The translations under genes were made by a program, and so were the position numbers. This document shows positions 24,365-42,965 of a stretch of 42,965 bases of DNA, in pieces. The notes beneath the pieces are model-generated. The model did no database searches. It was not told the origin of the DNA and worked only from the letters and a program-made list of their open reading frames with translations. The stretch's first letter is position 1. Every line of letters begins with the position of its first letter. The stretch covers positions 1-42,965 of the IMG/VR virus record IMGVR_UViG_2687453530_000006; one strand, 5' to 3'. The DNA is from a virus (taxonomy: Duplodnaviria > Heunggongvirae > Uroviricota > Caudoviricetes).

Positions 24365-24598
24365 ATGTCAACGAAGAACAGAACCCGCAGAACAACAACC
24401 CGCAACATCCGCTTTCCTAACCAAATGATTGAACAAATTAACATCGCTCTTGATCAAAAAGGGTCCGGGAATTTCTCAGCCTGGGTCATTGAAGCCTGCC
24501 GCCGGAGACTGTGCTCAGAAAAAAGAGTTTCTCCTGAAGCAAACAAAGAAAAGAGTGACATTACTGAATTGCTCAGAAAACAGATCAGACCAGATTGA
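24365..24598 (+). CDS. Small ribbon-helix-helix-like protein (lambda right-end ORF homolog)
   Basis: 77-aa ORF; basic N-terminus and NIRFPNQMIEQINIALDQ...WVIEACRRRL pattern typical of RHH folds; sits next to cos as in lambda. Confidence 0.6.
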   Translation: MSTKNRTRRTTTRNIRFPNQMIEQINIALDQKGSGNFSAWVIEACRRRLCSEKRVSPEANKEKSDITELLRKQIRPD

Positions 24599-24654
24599 AG
24601 CAATTTAGATAATCGTGCAGACTACACCCCTCATATCACATGGAAGGTACTACA

Positions 24655-25065
24655 ATGGCTCAGGTTGCCATTTTTAAACAAATATTCGATAAAGTGCGAA
24701 ATAATTTAAACTATCACTGGTTTTATTCTGAACTAAAACGTCACAATGTCTCACATTACATTTACTATTTAGCCACAGAGAATATTCATCTTGTTCTTGA
24801 AAACGATAATACGGTTTTAATAAAAGGACAGGGTAAGGTTGTAAATGTAAGATTTTCAAAAAATAAATGCCTTATAGAAGCCACCTTAAAAGGATTCAAA
24901 TCAGGAGAGTTATCATTTTACGAATACAGGAAAAATCTTGCTACAGCAGGGGTTTTCAGATGGATTACAAATATCCACGAAAACAAAAGGTATTACTATA
25001 CCTTTGATAATTCATTACTCTTTACTGAGAACATTCAGAACACTACACAAATATTTCCGCACTAA
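24655..25065 (+). CDS. DUF1398-family protein (lambda right-end ORF homolog)
   Basis: Start placed at [14 protein letters not shown], preceded by GGAAGG; resembles the lambda ORF adjacent to cos as recalled; the ORF extends upstream to 24640. Confidence 0.7.
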
Positions 25066-25913: not shown

Positions 25914-26966
25914 TTATTTCCCCACCAGCTCGTTTATCTCTTTCACTGTCTGGTTAAACCGCTCTGACTCAAGCTCAACACCTAAGGCCCGACGCCCCAG
26001 CGCCATTGCTGCTTTTATTGTGGAACCGGATCCCATAAAAAAATCAGCAACCAGATCACCAGGTCGACTACTGGCATTGATTATTTGCCTGAGCATATCC
26101 GCCGGTTTCTCACACGGATGTTTACCCGGGTAGAACTGAACGGGTTTATGCATCCAGACATCGGTATAAGGCACGGAGACTGATACGGAGAAATAGCGCC
26201 GGAGAGATTTAAACTCATCCAGCAATTCAGAATATTTGCGATTCAGTGAATCATAAGATGCCACCAGCTGGTGGTGTGGTTGTTCCAGTTGTTGTTCCTG
26301 AAACTTCTCTGCCGCTATACGGGAAAACAGTGCCTGTAACTTCCGATAGTCAGCCTCATTCGGCAACTGCCACTGACTGGCACCAAACCAGTGGGAAACC
26401 ATATTTTTCTTACCTGTGGCTTCAGCAATTTGTTTTGCCGTTATACCCAGTTCGGCACGAGCATCCCTGAAATACGATATCAGCGGTGCCATTATGTGCT
26501 GTTTGAGTTCCCTTTCTTTTGCCGCATAGCCGTCACTTTTGCCGCGATATGGCCCCTGGTAATGTTCAGCAAACAGAACGCGCTCTGTGGCAGGAAAATA
26601 TGCGCGCAGACTTTCTTTATTACACCCATTCCAACGTCCGGACGGCTTCGCCCAGATGATATGGTTAAGCACGTTGAAACGTTCACGCATCATGATCTCA
26701 ATATCAGATGCCAGGCGATGCCCACAGAACAGGTAAAGGCTTCCGGCAGGTTTTAACACCCGCCAGAACTGGGCCAGACAGTGGTCCAGCCACTTAAGGT
26801 AATCTTCGTCCCCTTTCCACTGATTGTCCCAGCCGTTGGGTTTCACCTTGAAGTACGGCGGATCGGTAACAATCAGGTCAATGGAATCATCAGGCAGGGA
26901 CTGAATAAAATGCAGGCAATCAGCGTTGATTAAATCAACACTGTTTATTTTTACAGTATTTTTCAT
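25914..26966 (-). CDS. DNA methyltransferase (beta-class N6-adenine or N4-cytosine; DPPY motif)
   Basis: 350-aa ORF with [10 protein letters not shown] (motif IV) near the N-terminus and FFMGSGST (motif I, SAM binding) near the C-terminus. Confidence 0.8.
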
Positions 26967-27116
26967 GGATCAGTAAGCGTAACTCTGGTAGGCTCACTCT
27001 GCTTTTGCGCTAAAGCAGTGGGCCGTGGTTCGCTTGTGACCAGTAGGCATGAGCGAATGGCTGGCAGGTGCTACCAACACCCACCAGCCGCCCATTTTCA
27101 CAGCAGGAAACCGCCA

Positions 27117-27320
27117 TTACTGGCAGCGTCTGAATTTATTCCCGTACCCGCCGTTATCCTTCGCCAGACCCGCCAGAACTAACTGAGTCAGTATTAACTG
27201 GCACCGGGCTTCGCTTACTCCGGTAGTTCTCGTCATCATGCGTGGCGTTACCCACTTGTCAGCAGGTAAGAAATGAAGGACTGCGGCGGCGGTTTCTGTC
27301 ATATCTTGCTGTTTTAGCAT
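27117..27320 (-). CDS. Hypothetical small protein (67 aa from the internal Met)
   Basis: ORF 27117-27404; start placed at MLKQQDMTETAAAVLHF, preceded by AAGGGA; first ORF of the late region upstream of the methyltransferase. Confidence 0.4.
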   Translation of the reverse strand: MLKQQDMTETAAAVLHFLPADKWVTPRMMTRTTGVSEARCQLILTQLVLAGLAKDNGGYGNKFRRCQ

Positions 27321-27445
27321 GTTTTTTCCCTTCTGGTTAACATGACATACCAATAACTCTTGTCTAAAAAGCCAGCAAGATAAAAAGCCAGTATTCACGA
27401 CCACCAGCGTGTTTACTGTACTGCACCAGGTTTACAGGTACAAAA

Positions 27446-27472
27446 AAACCGCTCAGCGGCGGGTTTAAGTTG
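27446..27472 (-). terminator. Possible tR'-like intrinsic terminator at the head of the late operon
   Basis: On the minus strand, short GC stem (ccgc-tga-gcgg) followed by 7 T; the stem is only about 4 bp, so this is weak. Confidence 0.3.
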
Positions 27473-27588
27473 TGTGGCGAAGTAACCACTCTTAACAGAT
27501 TACAATGTTTTTTGCGGACCGCGCTAATGATTTCCTCTTTTTTTTGTTGTATTTTTCACACGGTTGCTAAAATTATTTCGGATCGATA

Positions 27589-28530
27589 ATGAGTACAGAA
27601 AATAAGAATAAAACTAGGCGAGTGAGAGTTGGTTTTTTCACTGGTAATGGAAGCAAAAAAGATGGCACATCTGCTGCAAAACTAGCCTTTGAGCAAATGA
27701 CCACAGCAGATACTGTAACTTTTCCAATAACTTACACAACAGACACCCCAAATCGAGGGTTAAAGTTAGTTATTCTTCAAAAAGATACCACACTGCAATG
27801 TTACTTTGGTTACGTATCGTGGAGAAGGGAATGCCTACTACCGTTCATCGAGGATGCTACAGGTAGTGAGAGAACAATTCCTTTAAATGATAAAGATTCT
27901 GTAGTTGAAAGAACATATTTTATCTATTACTACGAAACGGATTTATTAGCTATGACCCTCAACCATATAGGGCCCAAAGTAAATGATCTGGCATTCATTT
28001 TGTATAACAAAACTGATTTAAAAAGCGTGACTTTTGAAGCCATTTGGAAACAAGAGAGCATGAAGGAACTGCTTGAGGACGGAAATATCCTACGTAGTTT
28101 CGATCTTATAGTTGCTGCTCCAAGAAACTTTAACAAAGCTAATTATAAGATTAAAAACCCTTTAGCTAATGAAATTATTGACATGGTTGTTGGTATGGGC
28201 GGGTCGCATCTAAGATTAAATATGCGAGGTCGGATTCGCCCGAAAAAACAAGGTTTTAACTATCTAAAAACTTCTGTCACCGATGCTATTAAGGAACTAC
28301 TTGAACTTTTTCCAAAAGGTTCTGGAGGTCTAAAAATTAAAAAAATTGATGTAACCGAGCCATCCAATAGAACGCCCAAAAGTCTACTTGACCAAGTATT
28401 GGTCAGTACAAAGACAATCATTGTCAAAAGCGGTTATCCATCCGATTCTGATATCAGAACGGCGATGATATCTGCTAAAATTGATAACGCGAACTATCTT
28501 GCACAGTATGAGCTCGCTAGCAGAGACTAA
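27589..28530 (+). CDS. Hypothetical soluble protein, candidate RexA-like sensor of a two-gene module
   Basis: 313-aa ORF in an AT-rich block, opposite in orientation to surrounding late genes; basic N-terminus; the stretch HIGPKVNDLAFILYNK resembles a lambda RexA segment as recalled (unverified). Confidence 0.45.
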   Translation: MSTENKNKTRRVRVGFFTGNGSKKDGTSAAKLAFEQMTTADTVTFPITYTTDTPNRGLKLVILQKDTTLQCYFGYVSWRRECLLPFIEDATGSERTIPLNDKDSVVERTYFIYYYETDLLAMTLNHIGPKVNDLAFILYNKTDLKSVTFEAIWKQESMKELLEDGNILRSFDLIVAAPRNFNKANYKIKNPLANEIIDMVVGMGGSHLRLNMRGRIRPKKQGFNYLKTSVTDAIKELLELFPKGSGGLKIKKIDVTEPSNRTPKSLLDQVLVSTKTIIVKSGYPSDSDIRTAMISAKIDNANYLAQYELASRD

Positions 28531-28539
28531 TAACCAAGC

Positions 28540-29001
28540 ATGGAGGACACAATGAGAGAATTAGCCACTTTTCTCTGGAAATGCGTCCTCTGGATTCTGT
28601 TGACCTATGCAGCGACAAAACTGTTTAAACCGATGAAGCATGCTGACGTACTCACAACAGCGGGGGTGCTCTCGACTATATCAGGCATCCTGTTTGGTTT
28701 TGTTCTGGCTGCAATATCTATATTTAGTAGTGCAAACAGCGATAAGGAAGGAGCAATTAATGCCCTTAAGCAAAACAACGTGTTACCAACTCTGGTAAAT
28801 CGATTACTTTCAACAGGGTTAACTCTCATCGTCGCATGTATATTTCCATTGATAGCGATGTTTCTACCAGATGATGTTATTGTTGCGGGCAAACCTATTG
28901 ATTTCCTATTCATACTGTTAGGCTTATCCTCCCTTATAATTTCGCTATATACCTTCGGAAGGTGTTGGTTAGTGTTACGAAAAATCTTCCCCCACTTGTG
29001 A
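28540..29001 (+). CDS. Small four-helix membrane protein, candidate RexB-like effector
   Basis: 153-aa ORF 10 bp downstream of the 313-aa gene; four hydrophobic segments of about 20 residues; alternative start at 28552 after GGAGGA. Confidence 0.45.
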   Translation: MEDTMRELATFLWKCVLWILLTYAATKLFKPMKHADVLTTAGVLSTISGILFGFVLAAISIFSSANSDKEGAINALKQNNVLPTLVNRLLSTGLTLIVACIFPLIAMFLPDDVIVAGKPIDFLFILLGLSSLIISLYTFGRCWLVLRKIFPHL

Positions 29002-29030
29002 CAGGTTGGCCTCATATGGGGCCAACCTGT
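29001..29030. repeat. Perfect 11-bp inverted repeat (hairpin) between convergent genes
   Basis: acaggttggcc - 8 nt - ggccaacctgt, lying between the stop of the membrane-protein gene and the stop of Q. Confidence 0.7.
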
Positions 29031-29036
29031 GCAACC

Positions 29037-29405
29037 CTAAGCGTCCATTTCAAGGTTAACATCCAACATTGAAAGGCAACCATCAATAAATCCTTCGGCT
29101 AGTTGTATTTCTATGCGTACCAATTTTTCATCCTTTCCACGCACCTTTGCAATCTTACGCTTGGATATTCTGTATAAATAATGTGCCACAAGCAGCGAGT
29201 GCTCATCTGGCTTTTTTTGCTTTAGACGAGCAAGACAACCTTCAATAATTAATGCATCACTATCTGAACAAGCCTGACGTGTTTTGCTTGTGTAGGGAAG
29301 AAGCCCCTTAAACCCAGCAGCTATAGGCGAATAGTCTACTCCAGAACTATCACTCGCCGCCCATGCTCCCCAACGCTCCAGAACCATCTGAATATCACGC
29401 ATCAA
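29037..29405 (-). CDS. Q: Late-gene antiterminator Q (QuuD/Q82-like family)
   Basis: 122-aa ORF starting MMRDIQMVLERWGAWAA, resembling E. coli prophage QuuD-type antiterminators as recalled. Confidence 0.75.
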   Translation of the reverse strand: MMRDIQMVLERWGAWAASDSSGVDYSPIAAGFKGLLPYTSKTRQACSDSDALIIEGCLARLKQKKPDEHSLLVAHYLYRISKRKIAKVRGKDEKLVRIEIQLAEGFIDGCLSMLDVNLEMDA

Positions 29406-29419
29406 CTTTCTCCACCAAA

Positions 29420-30415
29420 TCAGGCCAACACACCAATCGCCAGCGCGCGATCGATAAAACGAAATATCAGCTCCAGTTGGGAGCCATACTTCTCTTCAAA
29501 TGCCACGGTATCCGCATGCAGCTCGTCGTGATGCTTTCTGCACAAAGGCAACACAAAGAGGTCATGCACTTTTGTATCCATTCCACCCTGACCGTGACCT
29601 ATCAGGTGGTGGGGATCATCAGCAGGCTTTCCACAACATGCACACGGCTGTGTCTTAACCCAGCGCGTGTACTTTTCATTAACCCAGCGGCGGCGTTTTG
29701 GGCGTAACATAAAAGACTCCGGCGACTCCGGATCCACTTTCAGCGCCAGCACCTTTTTCGCCTTATCCTGGATGATGCTGGTGGCAGGAACCGAAGGCAC
29801 AAGGTCACTTTCCCGGGTGACAGACGGCACAACAGGCTTCGGTAATCTCAGTGCCTTACGGGCTGCACTTTCCGGTAAGGCATCTGCCAGATCATTACGA
29901 ATCAGCCACCAGCACAGTTCCGGCATTGTCACAACGTGACTATCATCAAAACCGAGATCCCGACGCACAACAGACAACACCCAGCGGGCACAGTTATCCG
30001 TTGCCATTGATTCCAGCCGTTCCGTGAACTGATCGCGAAGCTGGTTATCGCAGTGCCAGCACAGACGGATTGCGCCCGGCGCGTGTCGCATTGTGGTCAT
30101 GTTCTCGCTGTGCCAGTCGGAATGAGGCCACTGGCAGCCTTTTTCACGAAGTAACCAGCTTTCAAGACATTCCACCCCACCAGCACGACGAATCACTGCC
30201 TCATTACGGAACACGGCCAGAACGGCAGGATCATCCGCCAGCGGTTGTGATGCCGCAGGAACGGCACCACTGGCGAAAGATGAATAACGCTCCGGCTCAG
30301 GCTCCAGCAGAACACGCCCCTGCATAAACAGGGGCATCAGCTCTGAACCTGGCCTGAACAATACGATCCCCATACGCGGGGCTATTTCAGGGGTCAGTAG
30401 TGCTCTCACGGTCAC
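29420..30415 (-). CDS. DUF968-family protein (YdfU-like) with C-terminal Cys/His HNH-like motif
   Basis: 331-aa ORF; C-terminal CACCGKPADDPHHLIGHG...CRKHHDELH; adjacent to Q as ydfU is to quuQ in the Qin prophage as recalled. Confidence 0.6.
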   Translation of the reverse strand: MTVRALLTPEIAPRMGIVLFRPGSELMPLFMQGRVLLEPEPERYSSFASGAVPAASQPLADDPAVLAVFRNEAVIRRAGGVECLESWLLREKGCQWPHSDWHSENMTTMRHAPGAIRLCWHCDNQLRDQFTERLESMATDNCARWVLSVVRRDLGFDDSHVVTMPELCWWLIRNDLADALPESAARKALRLPKPVVPSVTRESDLVPSVPATSIIQDKAKKVLALKVDPESPESFMLRPKRRRWVNEKYTRWVKTQPCACCGKPADDPHHLIGHGQGGMDTKVHDLFVLPLCRKHHDELHADTVAFEEKYGSQLELIFRFIDRALAIGVLA

Positions 30416-41922: not shown

Positions 41923-42384
41923 TTATTCATAATGTTGAAGAGCAGCGAGTATCAGTTTTTTATGCCGTTTAACCATAGTTTTAGATATCTCAACTGCACA
42001 TCGAACTTGTCTCATACAATGATCTGTAATGCGACCTTTTAGCACGTCACCATATTGGATGGCTATTTTCTCTTTAATAATTTCAAGATCGAAAGCAGCA
42101 TGAGCCTCAATGCAATTAACAAATGAGTCCCATTTAAGAAAATCATGGTCCTCTCTATTAATTTCGACCTGACAAGCCATAAGATCATTGTTTCTCTTAA
42201 TAAATTCATTTATATCTGAATTTATTAGAAGAACTAAAAGAGGTTCACAGCAAACAACCACCATATATTTTACTTTAGGTGGGGTCGTAAAATCACAATG
42301 AAGATACAATACATCACCGGGTGATATACCTCTTTCACGACTAAAATTAGCCTTAAAATCAGGAGGGAAACAATCACCCAGCAT
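41923..42384 (-). CDS. Hypothetical protein, candidate toxin partner of the Panacea-domain protein
   Basis: 153 aa from the ATG at 42384, which lies 5 nt after the stop of the upstream Panacea-domain ORF; AT-rich; no recognisable motif. Confidence 0.4.
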   Translation of the reverse strand: MLGDCFPPDFKANFSRERGISPGDVLYLHCDFTTPPKVKYMVVVCCEPLLVLLINSDINEFIKRNNDLMACQVEINREDHDFLKWDSFVNCIEAHAAFDLEIIKEKIAIQYGDVLKGRITDHCMRQVRCAVEISKTMVKRHKKLILAALQHYE

Positions 42385-42389
42385 AAGTA

Positions 42390-42965
42390 TCAATATCCGT
42401 TCTTCAGATAATCCAGTATTAATTTGCTATTTTTTAGCTGTGCAACTATCGATTCCAAAGACATCTCACCATTGTGATCTGCCTGTTCCCATGCCGCGTC
42501 ATGGCTCATGGTTCTGATAGCTTCAAAGGACATGTTTCCAAGCATCGCGATAGACTTATCAATACACTCTAAATCTGAGTCACTAAAAAAGTCTTCATCA
42601 GCTTCACGGCTCGGCACAATCGTCATACCTGATACAGAAAATGCTTTTCGCACAGAATCGACATCACAACCATTAGGAATGTAACGTCCATCTCCACGAG
42701 CAATTTTTATAATATCGTATGTGTTGCTTGCTACAGGCCCATCCTTCATAGCGTTATAGTGATCGCCCGTTATGAGGCGTCCAAAACTTTCAAGGTGAAA
42801 CCTGTCAGCATAATAAAGAATTTTTCCGACATGATAGATATCTGGGATCGGTGCTTTAGAGGCGACGTACAGAATGGCCTCTAAAGCCTTTTCTGAATCA
42901 AACCTTACATTTAGCATCAATACACCCTTCATCCAAACAACATCGTCAAGCTCTGGCAAATGCAA
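42390..42965 (-). CDS. Panacea-domain (DUF4065) protein, putative antitoxin; 5' end at or beyond the window edge
   Basis: 191-aa ORF reaching the window boundary; KALEAILYVASKAP...VGKILYYADRFHLESFGRLITGDHYNAMKDGPVASNTYDII fits the Panacea domain pattern as recalled. Confidence 0.55.
   Translation of the reverse strand: MHLPELDDVVWMKGVLMLNVRFDSEKALEAILYVASKAPIPDIYHVGKILYYADRFHLESFGRLITGDHYNAMKDGPVASNTYDIIKIARGDGRYIPNGCDVDSVRKAFSVSGMTIVPSREADEDFFSDSDLECIDKSIAMLGNMSFEAIRTMSHDAAWEQADHNGEMSLESIVAQLKNSKLILDYLKNGY

Follow-up and report, generated by a model that had tools for sequence, protein, structure and literature searches.

A probable RexAB-type abortive-infection cassette beside the Q gene of a lambdoid prophage

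Among abortive-infection systems, RexAB has been known the longest; 70 years on, what triggers it and how it works are still not settled. The rex genes of lambda lie in the immunity region, are expressed from PRM and PLIT, and encode RexA (PF15969; PDB 8TWQ) and RexB (PF15968; 144 aa, four transmembrane (TM) helices). Likewise, the actinobacteriophage pairs Sbash gp30/gp31, CarolAnn gp44/gp43, and Butters gp30/gp31 are two-gene prophage defence systems that combine a soluble RexA-like protein with a four-TM protein; their soluble partners are larger (337-372 aa) and reportedly carry DUF4747, and the central cytoplasmic loop of the membrane protein is functionally important (Sbash gp31 R70, D73). 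For an analogous pair from Pseudomonas putida prophage P1, RexABpp (PP_5643/PP_5644), experimental validation came in 2026 (Rosendahl et al., Sci Rep 2026, PMC12894663). Of the five Rex-like systems described to date, the membrane protein is the effector in four, while the roles of the two proteins are reversed in Butters (PMC12894663). Nor do these systems always stand beside a repressor: Sbash, Butters, and Rubeelu differ in this respect (PMC11077077). Here, we analyze two adjacent genes, which we call A and B, in a 42,965-nucleotide viral sequence (IMG/VR record IMGVR_UViG_2687453530_000006; hereafter, the window) that constitutes a lambdoid prophage. From computational comparisons, we conclude that the pair is very probably a structural and evolutionary relative of RexAB-type systems and that, by analogy with them, it probably acts as a RexAB-type abortive-infection defence cassette.

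Gene A (27589-28530, plus strand) was called as an open reading frame (ORF) encoding a 313-aa soluble protein, which we propose to be the cytoplasmic sensor and DNA-binding component. Gene B (28552-29001, plus strand) encodes a predicted four-TM inner-membrane protein of 149 aa, the proposed effector, and starts 21 bp after the stop codon of A. An initial annotation of this DNA had given the two proteins as 313 and 153 aa; the first length stands, and the second corresponds to the mechanical ORF (28540-29001). The ATG at 28552 is almost certainly the true start of B, because a Shine-Dalgarno sequence, GGAGGA (28542-28547, plus strand, read from the sequence), precedes it by 4 nt, nearly all homologs are 145-149 aa long and start there, and RefSeq annotates a 149-aa protein. 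On comparative grounds, both A and B are real genes: for each we found dozens of homologs, the most distant at about 45% identity, and many columns of the alignments are invariant; this conservation rules out chance ORFs. The Q antiterminator gene (29037-29405, minus strand; PF06530, E 7.7e-52) is convergent with B at a distance of 35 bp, and the genes to the left of the cassette, which encode a 95-aa ORF product, an N6/N4 DNA methyltransferase, a holin, and a lysozyme, are all on the minus strand. The ORF calls and the Q match thus bear out the annotated arrangement of two tightly linked genes that oppose their surroundings and converge with Q. The pair also lies outside the immunity region, as had been noted: it has Q on one side and the late genes on the other, and the LexA-family (CI-type) repressor gene ymfK is about 7 kb away. 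The tested 1.8 kb of this locus is identical to a prophage in E. coli ACN002.

We found that the A protein is a full-length member of PHROG 7651 (E 5e-146) with no match among Pfam, NCBIfam, or PADLOC models. A itself does not match PF20505 (DUF6731) even at E 10. In contrast, 23 of its 42 close homologs match this family (best E 1e-11), and a profile of the A family finds genuine DUF6731 members in Thiococcus, Shewanella, Pseudoalteromonas, and Vibrio. Three proteins retrieved by this profile (P0181, P0173, and P0179; E 9e-16 to 2e-21) match PF20505 at 45-61 bits, above the cutoff of 27. By transitive homology, these sequence comparisons place A in DUF6731 and, because A gives no PF20505 match of its own, on a divergent enterobacterial branch of that family. 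An exhaustive profile search recovered 171 A-family representatives among 1.84 billion proteins. The initial annotation had suggested that the proteins might form an undescribed family. As to membership this does not hold, since A falls in DUF6731 and PHROG 7651 and B in PHROG 8552; as to function it does, since these families have no functional annotation and we found no published link between them and Rex.

The relationship of A to lambda RexA shows in the predicted fold and is suggested by deep profiles. Direct pairwise and hidden Markov model (HMM) comparisons gave no significant similarity, and identity in a structural alignment is 14%. A stretch that the initial annotation had singled out as RexA-like (A 114-141, YYETDLLAMTLNHIGPKVNDLAFILYNK) does form the top local alignment with RexA (95-122, FVEGDTIGFARTVFGPTTSDLTDFLIGK) in BLASTP and in two hhalign runs, and the two segments share D..........GP...DL....L..K, but the match is not significant alone (BLASTP E 0.49; hhalign probability 0.5% and 8.7% with shallow profiles). 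When a 174-sequence profile of A was compared with the RexA alignment, hhalign returned an E of 1.2e-4 and a probability of 55% over 219 collinear columns beginning at RexA residue 1. The RexA side of this comparison was shallow (7 sequences): the neighbors of RexB homologs, examined at three loci, gave one intact RexA, and two scans of viral contigs yielded no extra RexA diversity. For comparison, PP_5643, which comes from another host and another prophage and which we compared by its published description, matches RexA at 98% in HHpred (PMC12894663), whereas our 55% was obtained with shallower local profiles.

In the AlphaFold2 (AF2) model, A consists of an N-terminal beta-rich block, an alpha/beta insert at residues ~156-256, a returning strand, and a C-terminal helix. 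This modeled order of secondary structure corresponds to the architecture of RexA, in which an alpha/beta dimerization domain is inserted into a split globular beta-sheet domain. The fold matches of the model include Iml3, Chl4, CENP-N, RdgC, Cas2, and the 3oh8 epimerase, the same set that Adams et al. (2024) reported as RexA's own structural neighbors (PMC11077077). The resemblance was not memorized by AF2, because 8TWQ was released in 2024, after the AF2 training data. In the BFVD database, the top fold match of A comes from the uncultured phage ctylc9 (E 3e-12); lambda RexA and RexB are absent from the BFVD fold lists of A and B. A exceeds RexA in length by about 35 residues and has an insertion, modeled with low confidence, at residues 82-106. 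RdgC (PDB 2OWL), a recombination-associated DNA-binding ring dimer, resembles A much less than RexA does; unlike A, it is the product of a chromosomal housekeeping gene, has no membrane partner, and carries an extra tip domain. Nor was any DUF4747 signal, as reported for the actinobacteriophage proteins, seen in the 42 A-family members scanned. From the profiles and the model, we conclude that A is probably related to RexA as a remote homolog, at the level of fold and superfamily, and lies outside the RexA sequence family.

B was modeled by AF2 with a mean pLDDT (predicted local distance difference test) score of 81.6 as four long helices (residues 2-28, 34-64, 81-108, and 120-149) with a short loop helix at 72-78, and the model and hydropathy agree with the annotation of B as a four-helix membrane protein. 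B has the predicted layout of a RexB-like effector, namely ~145 aa with four TM helices, TM2 and TM3 being joined by a conserved central loop (65-80), and shares with lambda RexB its size, its helix arrangement, and the conserved basic character of that loop. In the B alignment, L76 and K77 of this loop are invariant and TM2 is nearly invariant. B is a full-length member of PHROG 8552 (E 1.7e-44). Using shallow profiles, including a 22-sequence alignment of RexB, hhalign placed B 18-86 in register with RexB 17-84 at a probability of 4.5%, and adding distant partners to the B profile raised this value to 34.7% (E 4e-4). The distant partners carry a central-loop motif, K..[KR].[HY]G[HY] (for example, IAKLKKHGYY and LKNMRRTGHF), which the invariant K73...Y77-G78-Y79 of RexB resembles. 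One partner (L118) serves as a bridging sequence that links weakly to both the B and the RexB sides: Pfam RexB is its best match among 24,736 families, full-length and in register, although below threshold (18.3 bits against 27; E 0.0035). A fold search of BFVD with B gave no match at E <= 0.001; the best hit came from phage ctylc9, the same phage as that of A, and the second best is an uncharacterized 165-aa Sbash protein (A0A0A7RXT6, E 0.025), possibly gp31. Together, the sequence evidence for homology between B and RexB is suggestive and falls short of establishing it. The membrane partner in P. putida RexABpp likewise has no detectable RexB homology (PMC12894663).

A and B are almost always linked. 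Among 80 viral-contig (IMG/VR) loci with an A relative (43-100% identity), a B homolog lies directly downstream in 79, and the lone exception has a truncated A; the genes are separated by 1-30 bp, or overlap in one locus (L099). In 74 of the 80, a convergent homolog of the window's Q follows 20-45 bp past B. In the inducible phage cdtI, a diverged version of A-B (45% and 50% identity) fills the corresponding slot, and Pectobacterium and Yersinia prophages carry a pair there with otherwise different lysis cassettes. Adjacent and co-oriented A-then-B genes on a temperate phage or prophage, an operational feature of RexAB-type systems, are therefore found in the window, in cdtI, and in other prophages. 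A relatives at 43% identity also occur away from Q, amid tail genes (L102) and next to SopE and tail-fiber genes (L100). A B-like partner also follows distant DUF6731 genes in Aeromonas (98.7%), a marine contig (99.2%), Thiococcus (95%), another metagenomic contig (86.6%), and a Vinavirales Vibrio phage (99.4%). These distant pairs usually adjoin an integrase or repressor gene and follow the integrase in three cases (L116, L118, and L121). In Aeromonas hydrophila (L115), cro is followed divergently by cI (HTH_3 plus peptidase S24), A, and B, reproducing the cI-rexA-rexB order of lambda; this position downstream of cI, co-transcribed with it in the lambda arrangement, is not that of the pair in the window. 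In Vibrio phage 10N.286.54.F4_PE001 (L121), a 14.6-kb non-tailed PM2-like temperate phage of the Vinavirales, A-B occupy 1389-2896, immediately past the integrase, and the module therefore crosses viral realms.

In the viral collection, the canonical RexA family was found at 10-11 loci and the A family at at least 93. Of 5,426 complete E. coli genomes, 73 (~1.3%) contain this exact cassette in full, and among 50,697 records of isolated phages and elements, four distinct ones carry an A homolog. Two of the four, vB_EcoS-733R5 (ON470608.1 30277-31179) and vB_EcoS-716R3 (ON470622.1 15473-16375), have an A homolog at 45% identity labeled 'portal (connector) protein', which is almost certainly a misannotation. 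In E. coli NDM2 (NZ_CP083886.1 3654276-3657411), an IS2 element splits the match to the cassette region in two. Canonical RexB also occurs without intact RexA: a Sodalis contig (L011 3001-3444) has no RexA gene called beside RexB, and in Xenorhabdus budapestensis (L012 2142-3447) only a 150-aa RexA fragment stands upstream of intact RexB. The base composition of the cassette sets it apart as well. The GC content of 27529-29043 is 0.391, against 0.488 in the left flank, 0.527 in the right flank, and 0.519 in the window overall, in agreement with the low-GC block described by the initial annotation; it is the lowest-GC 1.5 kb of the window, equaled in only 5 of 829 sliding windows, and every sliding window with GC < 0.39 overlaps it. 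With its opposite strand and the different insertion slots used in other prophages, the cassette has the hallmarks of a moron, and we regard it as a self-contained, horizontally mobile two-gene prophage module.

These results offer well-supported grounds for placing the pair outside the RexA and RexB sequence families but within the RexA-fold superfamily and the operational RexAB-type class. Taking lambda RexAB, Sbash gp30/gp31, CarolAnn gp44/gp43, and P. putida RexABpp as models, we propose the following mechanism. A and B would be expressed in the lysogen from their own promoter. A, probably a DNA-binding dimer with a RexA/RdgC-type fold, would sense a cue that the infecting phage produces, for example an intermediate of its replication or recombination or one of its proteins, and would then activate B. 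B in turn would depolarize or permeabilize the inner membrane, so that ATP drops and growth stops; the infection would be aborted and the population carrying the prophage protected. Lysogen expression, DNA binding, activation of B by A, the membrane effect, and the anti-phage phenotype are each postulated by analogy.

Several observations weigh against a RexAB-type assignment or its mechanism. A matched neither Pfam PF15969 (E up to 1) nor PADLOC PDLC02339 (E up to 10), and the 42 A-family members gave no match to the RexA HMMs at E up to 10; B had no match in Pfam, NCBIfam, or PADLOC, the RexB models PF15968 and PDLC02340 included. We take these as true negatives because the Pfam and PADLOC models recognize the lambda proteins (1e-61 to 1e-108): lambda RexA matches its curated HMMs at 1.4e-96 and 1.3e-108, and lambda RexB at 8e-92 and 9e-61. 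Profile searches of PDB sequences with A and B found nothing, a consensus promoter scan upstream of A found no plus-strand promoter, and the AT-rich DNA of the cassette may be silenced in the lysogen. Our literature search found no paper on DUF6731, on the accessions of these proteins, or on this pair, and no experimental or expression report for the cassette or for any DUF6731 member. Finally, the direction of the mechanism should not be assumed, because the roles of the two proteins are reversed in Butters. The initial annotation had judged similarity to Rex too weak to call by eye and had named defence-family models and structures as the check; PADLOC gave no match for either protein, while the model of A has a RexA-type fold. 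Its RexAB-like reading is nonetheless supported, by computation, through the fold of A, the A-B linkage, and the deep profile alignment.

To understand how the cassette is situated in the transcriptional program, we compared the region to its left across four phages: the window, mEp460, PhiR40_1, and cdtI. The sequence shared with the window ends at ~27465 in mEp460, whose Q is of a different type; at ~27498 in PhiR40_1, with the same Q type and an unrelated moron; and at ~27528 in cdtI, with the same Q and a diverged cassette (the flank 27300-27528 is shared, with DNA conservation of 94%). The segment 27466-27528 is thus common to phages of the window's Q type, whatever fills the slot, and not to mEp460, and a 23-nt motif within it (27476-27498) recurs without mismatch in 37 loci, among them PhiR40_1 and both cassette alleles. 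On the minus strand, -35/-10-like hexamers are present in all three phages; in the window they are TTAGCG (27527-27522) and TGTAAT (27504-27499), separated by a 17-nt spacer. The region of Q binding and the late promoter has to vary together with the Q type; we therefore assign 27466-27528 (minus strand) as a candidate late promoter (PR') and Q-loading segment outside the cassette and infer that PR' itself lies at ~27499-27527, between the cassette and the late genes. Q-modified late transcription would therefore run away from the cassette, and the earlier suggestion that it passes antisense through the two genes is probably wrong.

In this arrangement, the cassette would sit between Q and PR', with a promoter region of its own back to back with PR', whereas lambda rex is read from the immunity promoters. 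The presumed A-B promoter lies in the cassette-specific upstream region (27529-27588, plus strand), which forms the left end of an exchange unit of ~1.5 kb; by eye, a candidate is made up of TTGTTG (27544-27549) and TAAAAT (27568-27573) with an 18-nt spacer, and it falls below the scan threshold. Only read-through of the early, Q-encoding transcript could enter the cassette. A very stable GC-rich hairpin (28996-29034) occupies the interval between the stop codons of B and Q, with a 13-bp core stem (29001-29013 with 29018-29030) and no U-tract on either strand. Its folding energy is -27.3 kcal/mol on the plus strand (z -6.05) and -21.4 kcal/mol on the minus strand (z -3.7), and it is possibly a barrier or 3'-end stabilizer for the convergent transcripts. 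A minus-strand terminator-like hairpin at 27460-27448 was considered as tR' and rejected for its weak fold (-7.1 kcal/mol, z -1.2), and an Rfam scan of 26900-29500 returned no RNA family.

The slot downstream of Q (27405-29043 in the window) is a variable moron slot across phages. Its occupant in PhiR40_1 (L010 2792-3238) is a lone, unrelated ORF of 148 aa whose N-terminus (LSATIISGC) resembles that of a lipoprotein and which we examined and rejected as a B homolog; in SfIV (L120 591-2510), the slot contains two other plus-strand ORFs and a transposase, and in mEp460 (L009 2745-3161), a different ORF.

The conserved position next to Q raises the possibility that the pair mainly regulates development of its own prophage, for instance by tuning late-gene commitment through convergent transcription into Q or through binding of A to DNA near the late promoter. 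The convergence with this Q type at 74 of 80 loci, and in the Pectobacterium and Yersinia prophages, fits such a role, as does the back-to-back arrangement of the cassette promoter region and the candidate PR'. There is also precedent in lambda, where RexB protects O from ClpXP and where RexA is documented to bias the CI/Cro switch toward lysis. Against a primarily developmental role, the pair also occurs away from Q (L102, L100, L115, L116, L118, and L121, the last a non-tailed phage), and the slot between Q and PR' holds unrelated morons in PhiR40_1 and SfIV; because of these two observations, the linkage to Q looks like mosaic co-inheritance. Developmental and exclusion roles moreover coexist in lambda, and we consider it unlikely that regulation is the main function of the pair. 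We also considered the assignment found in Butters, in which the soluble A would be the toxic or anti-phage effector and B would sequester it at the membrane until infection frees it. This has precedent in one of the five described Rex-like systems (PMC12894663) and would suit the many invariant basic and acidic residues of the A family. However, B is conserved as strongly as A in TM2 and the central loop, as fits an active effector, and the membrane protein is the effector in the other four systems; we consider a reversal of roles quite unlikely.

A further explanation is that the pair is a moron for lysogenic conversion or host fitness with no part in defence, acting for example in membrane stress or against cell death, and that the fold of A reflects generic DNA binding. 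That fold is common to RdgC, a recombination modulator, and to kinetochore proteins; orphan RexA and RexB genes exist (PMC11077077 and contigs examined here); and neither A nor B matches a PADLOC defence HMM. We nevertheless judge this explanation very unlikely. Lastly, B is a small multi-TM protein encoded ~1.6 kb from the holin and endolysin genes and could in principle be a holin, antiholin, or lysis regulator with A as its cytoplasmic partner. The opposite strand, which probably puts the pair outside the late operon, the lack of holin-family similarity in Pfam and PHROG, and the portability of the pair, which in other elements lies far from lysis genes and in this slot has freely varying lysis cassettes downstream, make this extremely improbable and effectively exclude it.

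Other features of the prophage deserve mention. The minus-strand segment 25914-27404, ahead of the holin, contains the first genes past the presumed late promoter, which encode the 95-aa protein (PHROG 331, with faint winged-helix MarR/TrmB-like signals) and the methyltransferase (PF01555, E 2e-42); this orphan methylase would be expressed late and may serve anti-restriction. A second low-GC, opposite-strand island (24365-25065, plus strand) separates the lysis genes from the terminase genes and carries coding sequences for YnfO and for a DUF1398 protein (E 3e-43). At the end of the prophage, a SocA/Panacea-domain antitoxin-like protein (42390-42959, minus strand; PF13274, E 4.9e-20) is adjoined by a 153-aa protein without a family (41923-42384, minus strand), and the two together (41923-42959) probably form a toxin-antitoxin pair of the PanA type, which makes them a further candidate module for defence or addiction in this prophage.

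The pair belongs to the already known RexAB-type class and is not categorically new. A wider reading, which we offer tentatively and regard as doubtful when taken as a whole, is that DUF6731 and its four-helix partner constitute the main, so far unrecognized branch of the Rex superfamily, about 10 times commoner in viral contigs than canonical RexAB. Its module would change location from phage to phage, appearing in the immunity region, between Q and the late promoter, in moron slots of the tail region, or close to the integrase gene, and would cross viral realms, from tailed phages to PM2-like Vinavirales. As part of the same reading, the fixed Q-convergent position in enterobacterial lambdoid phages would be functional: read-through of the early Q transcript would silence the cassette by antisense at the onset of the prophage's own lytic cycle, a built-in self-immunity, and transcription of the cassette into Q would help hold Q off in the lysogen.

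For phage biology more generally, the gap between Q and the late promoter in QuuD-type lambdoid phages can be flagged as a variable slot for morons and defence genes, and current HMM sets for finding defence systems miss the A-B pair. If the link between DUF6731 and RexAB is true, it would give a function to a family present in Enterobacterales, Aeromonas, Vibrio, Shewanella, Pseudoalteromonas, and Thiococcus, and a divergent Rex-type pair would be available in E. coli itself, open to T4 rII genetics, the BASEL phage panel, and lambda tools. Residues invariant across both families, namely the GP..DL block of A and the basic central loop of B, could then reveal features of sensing and effector activation.

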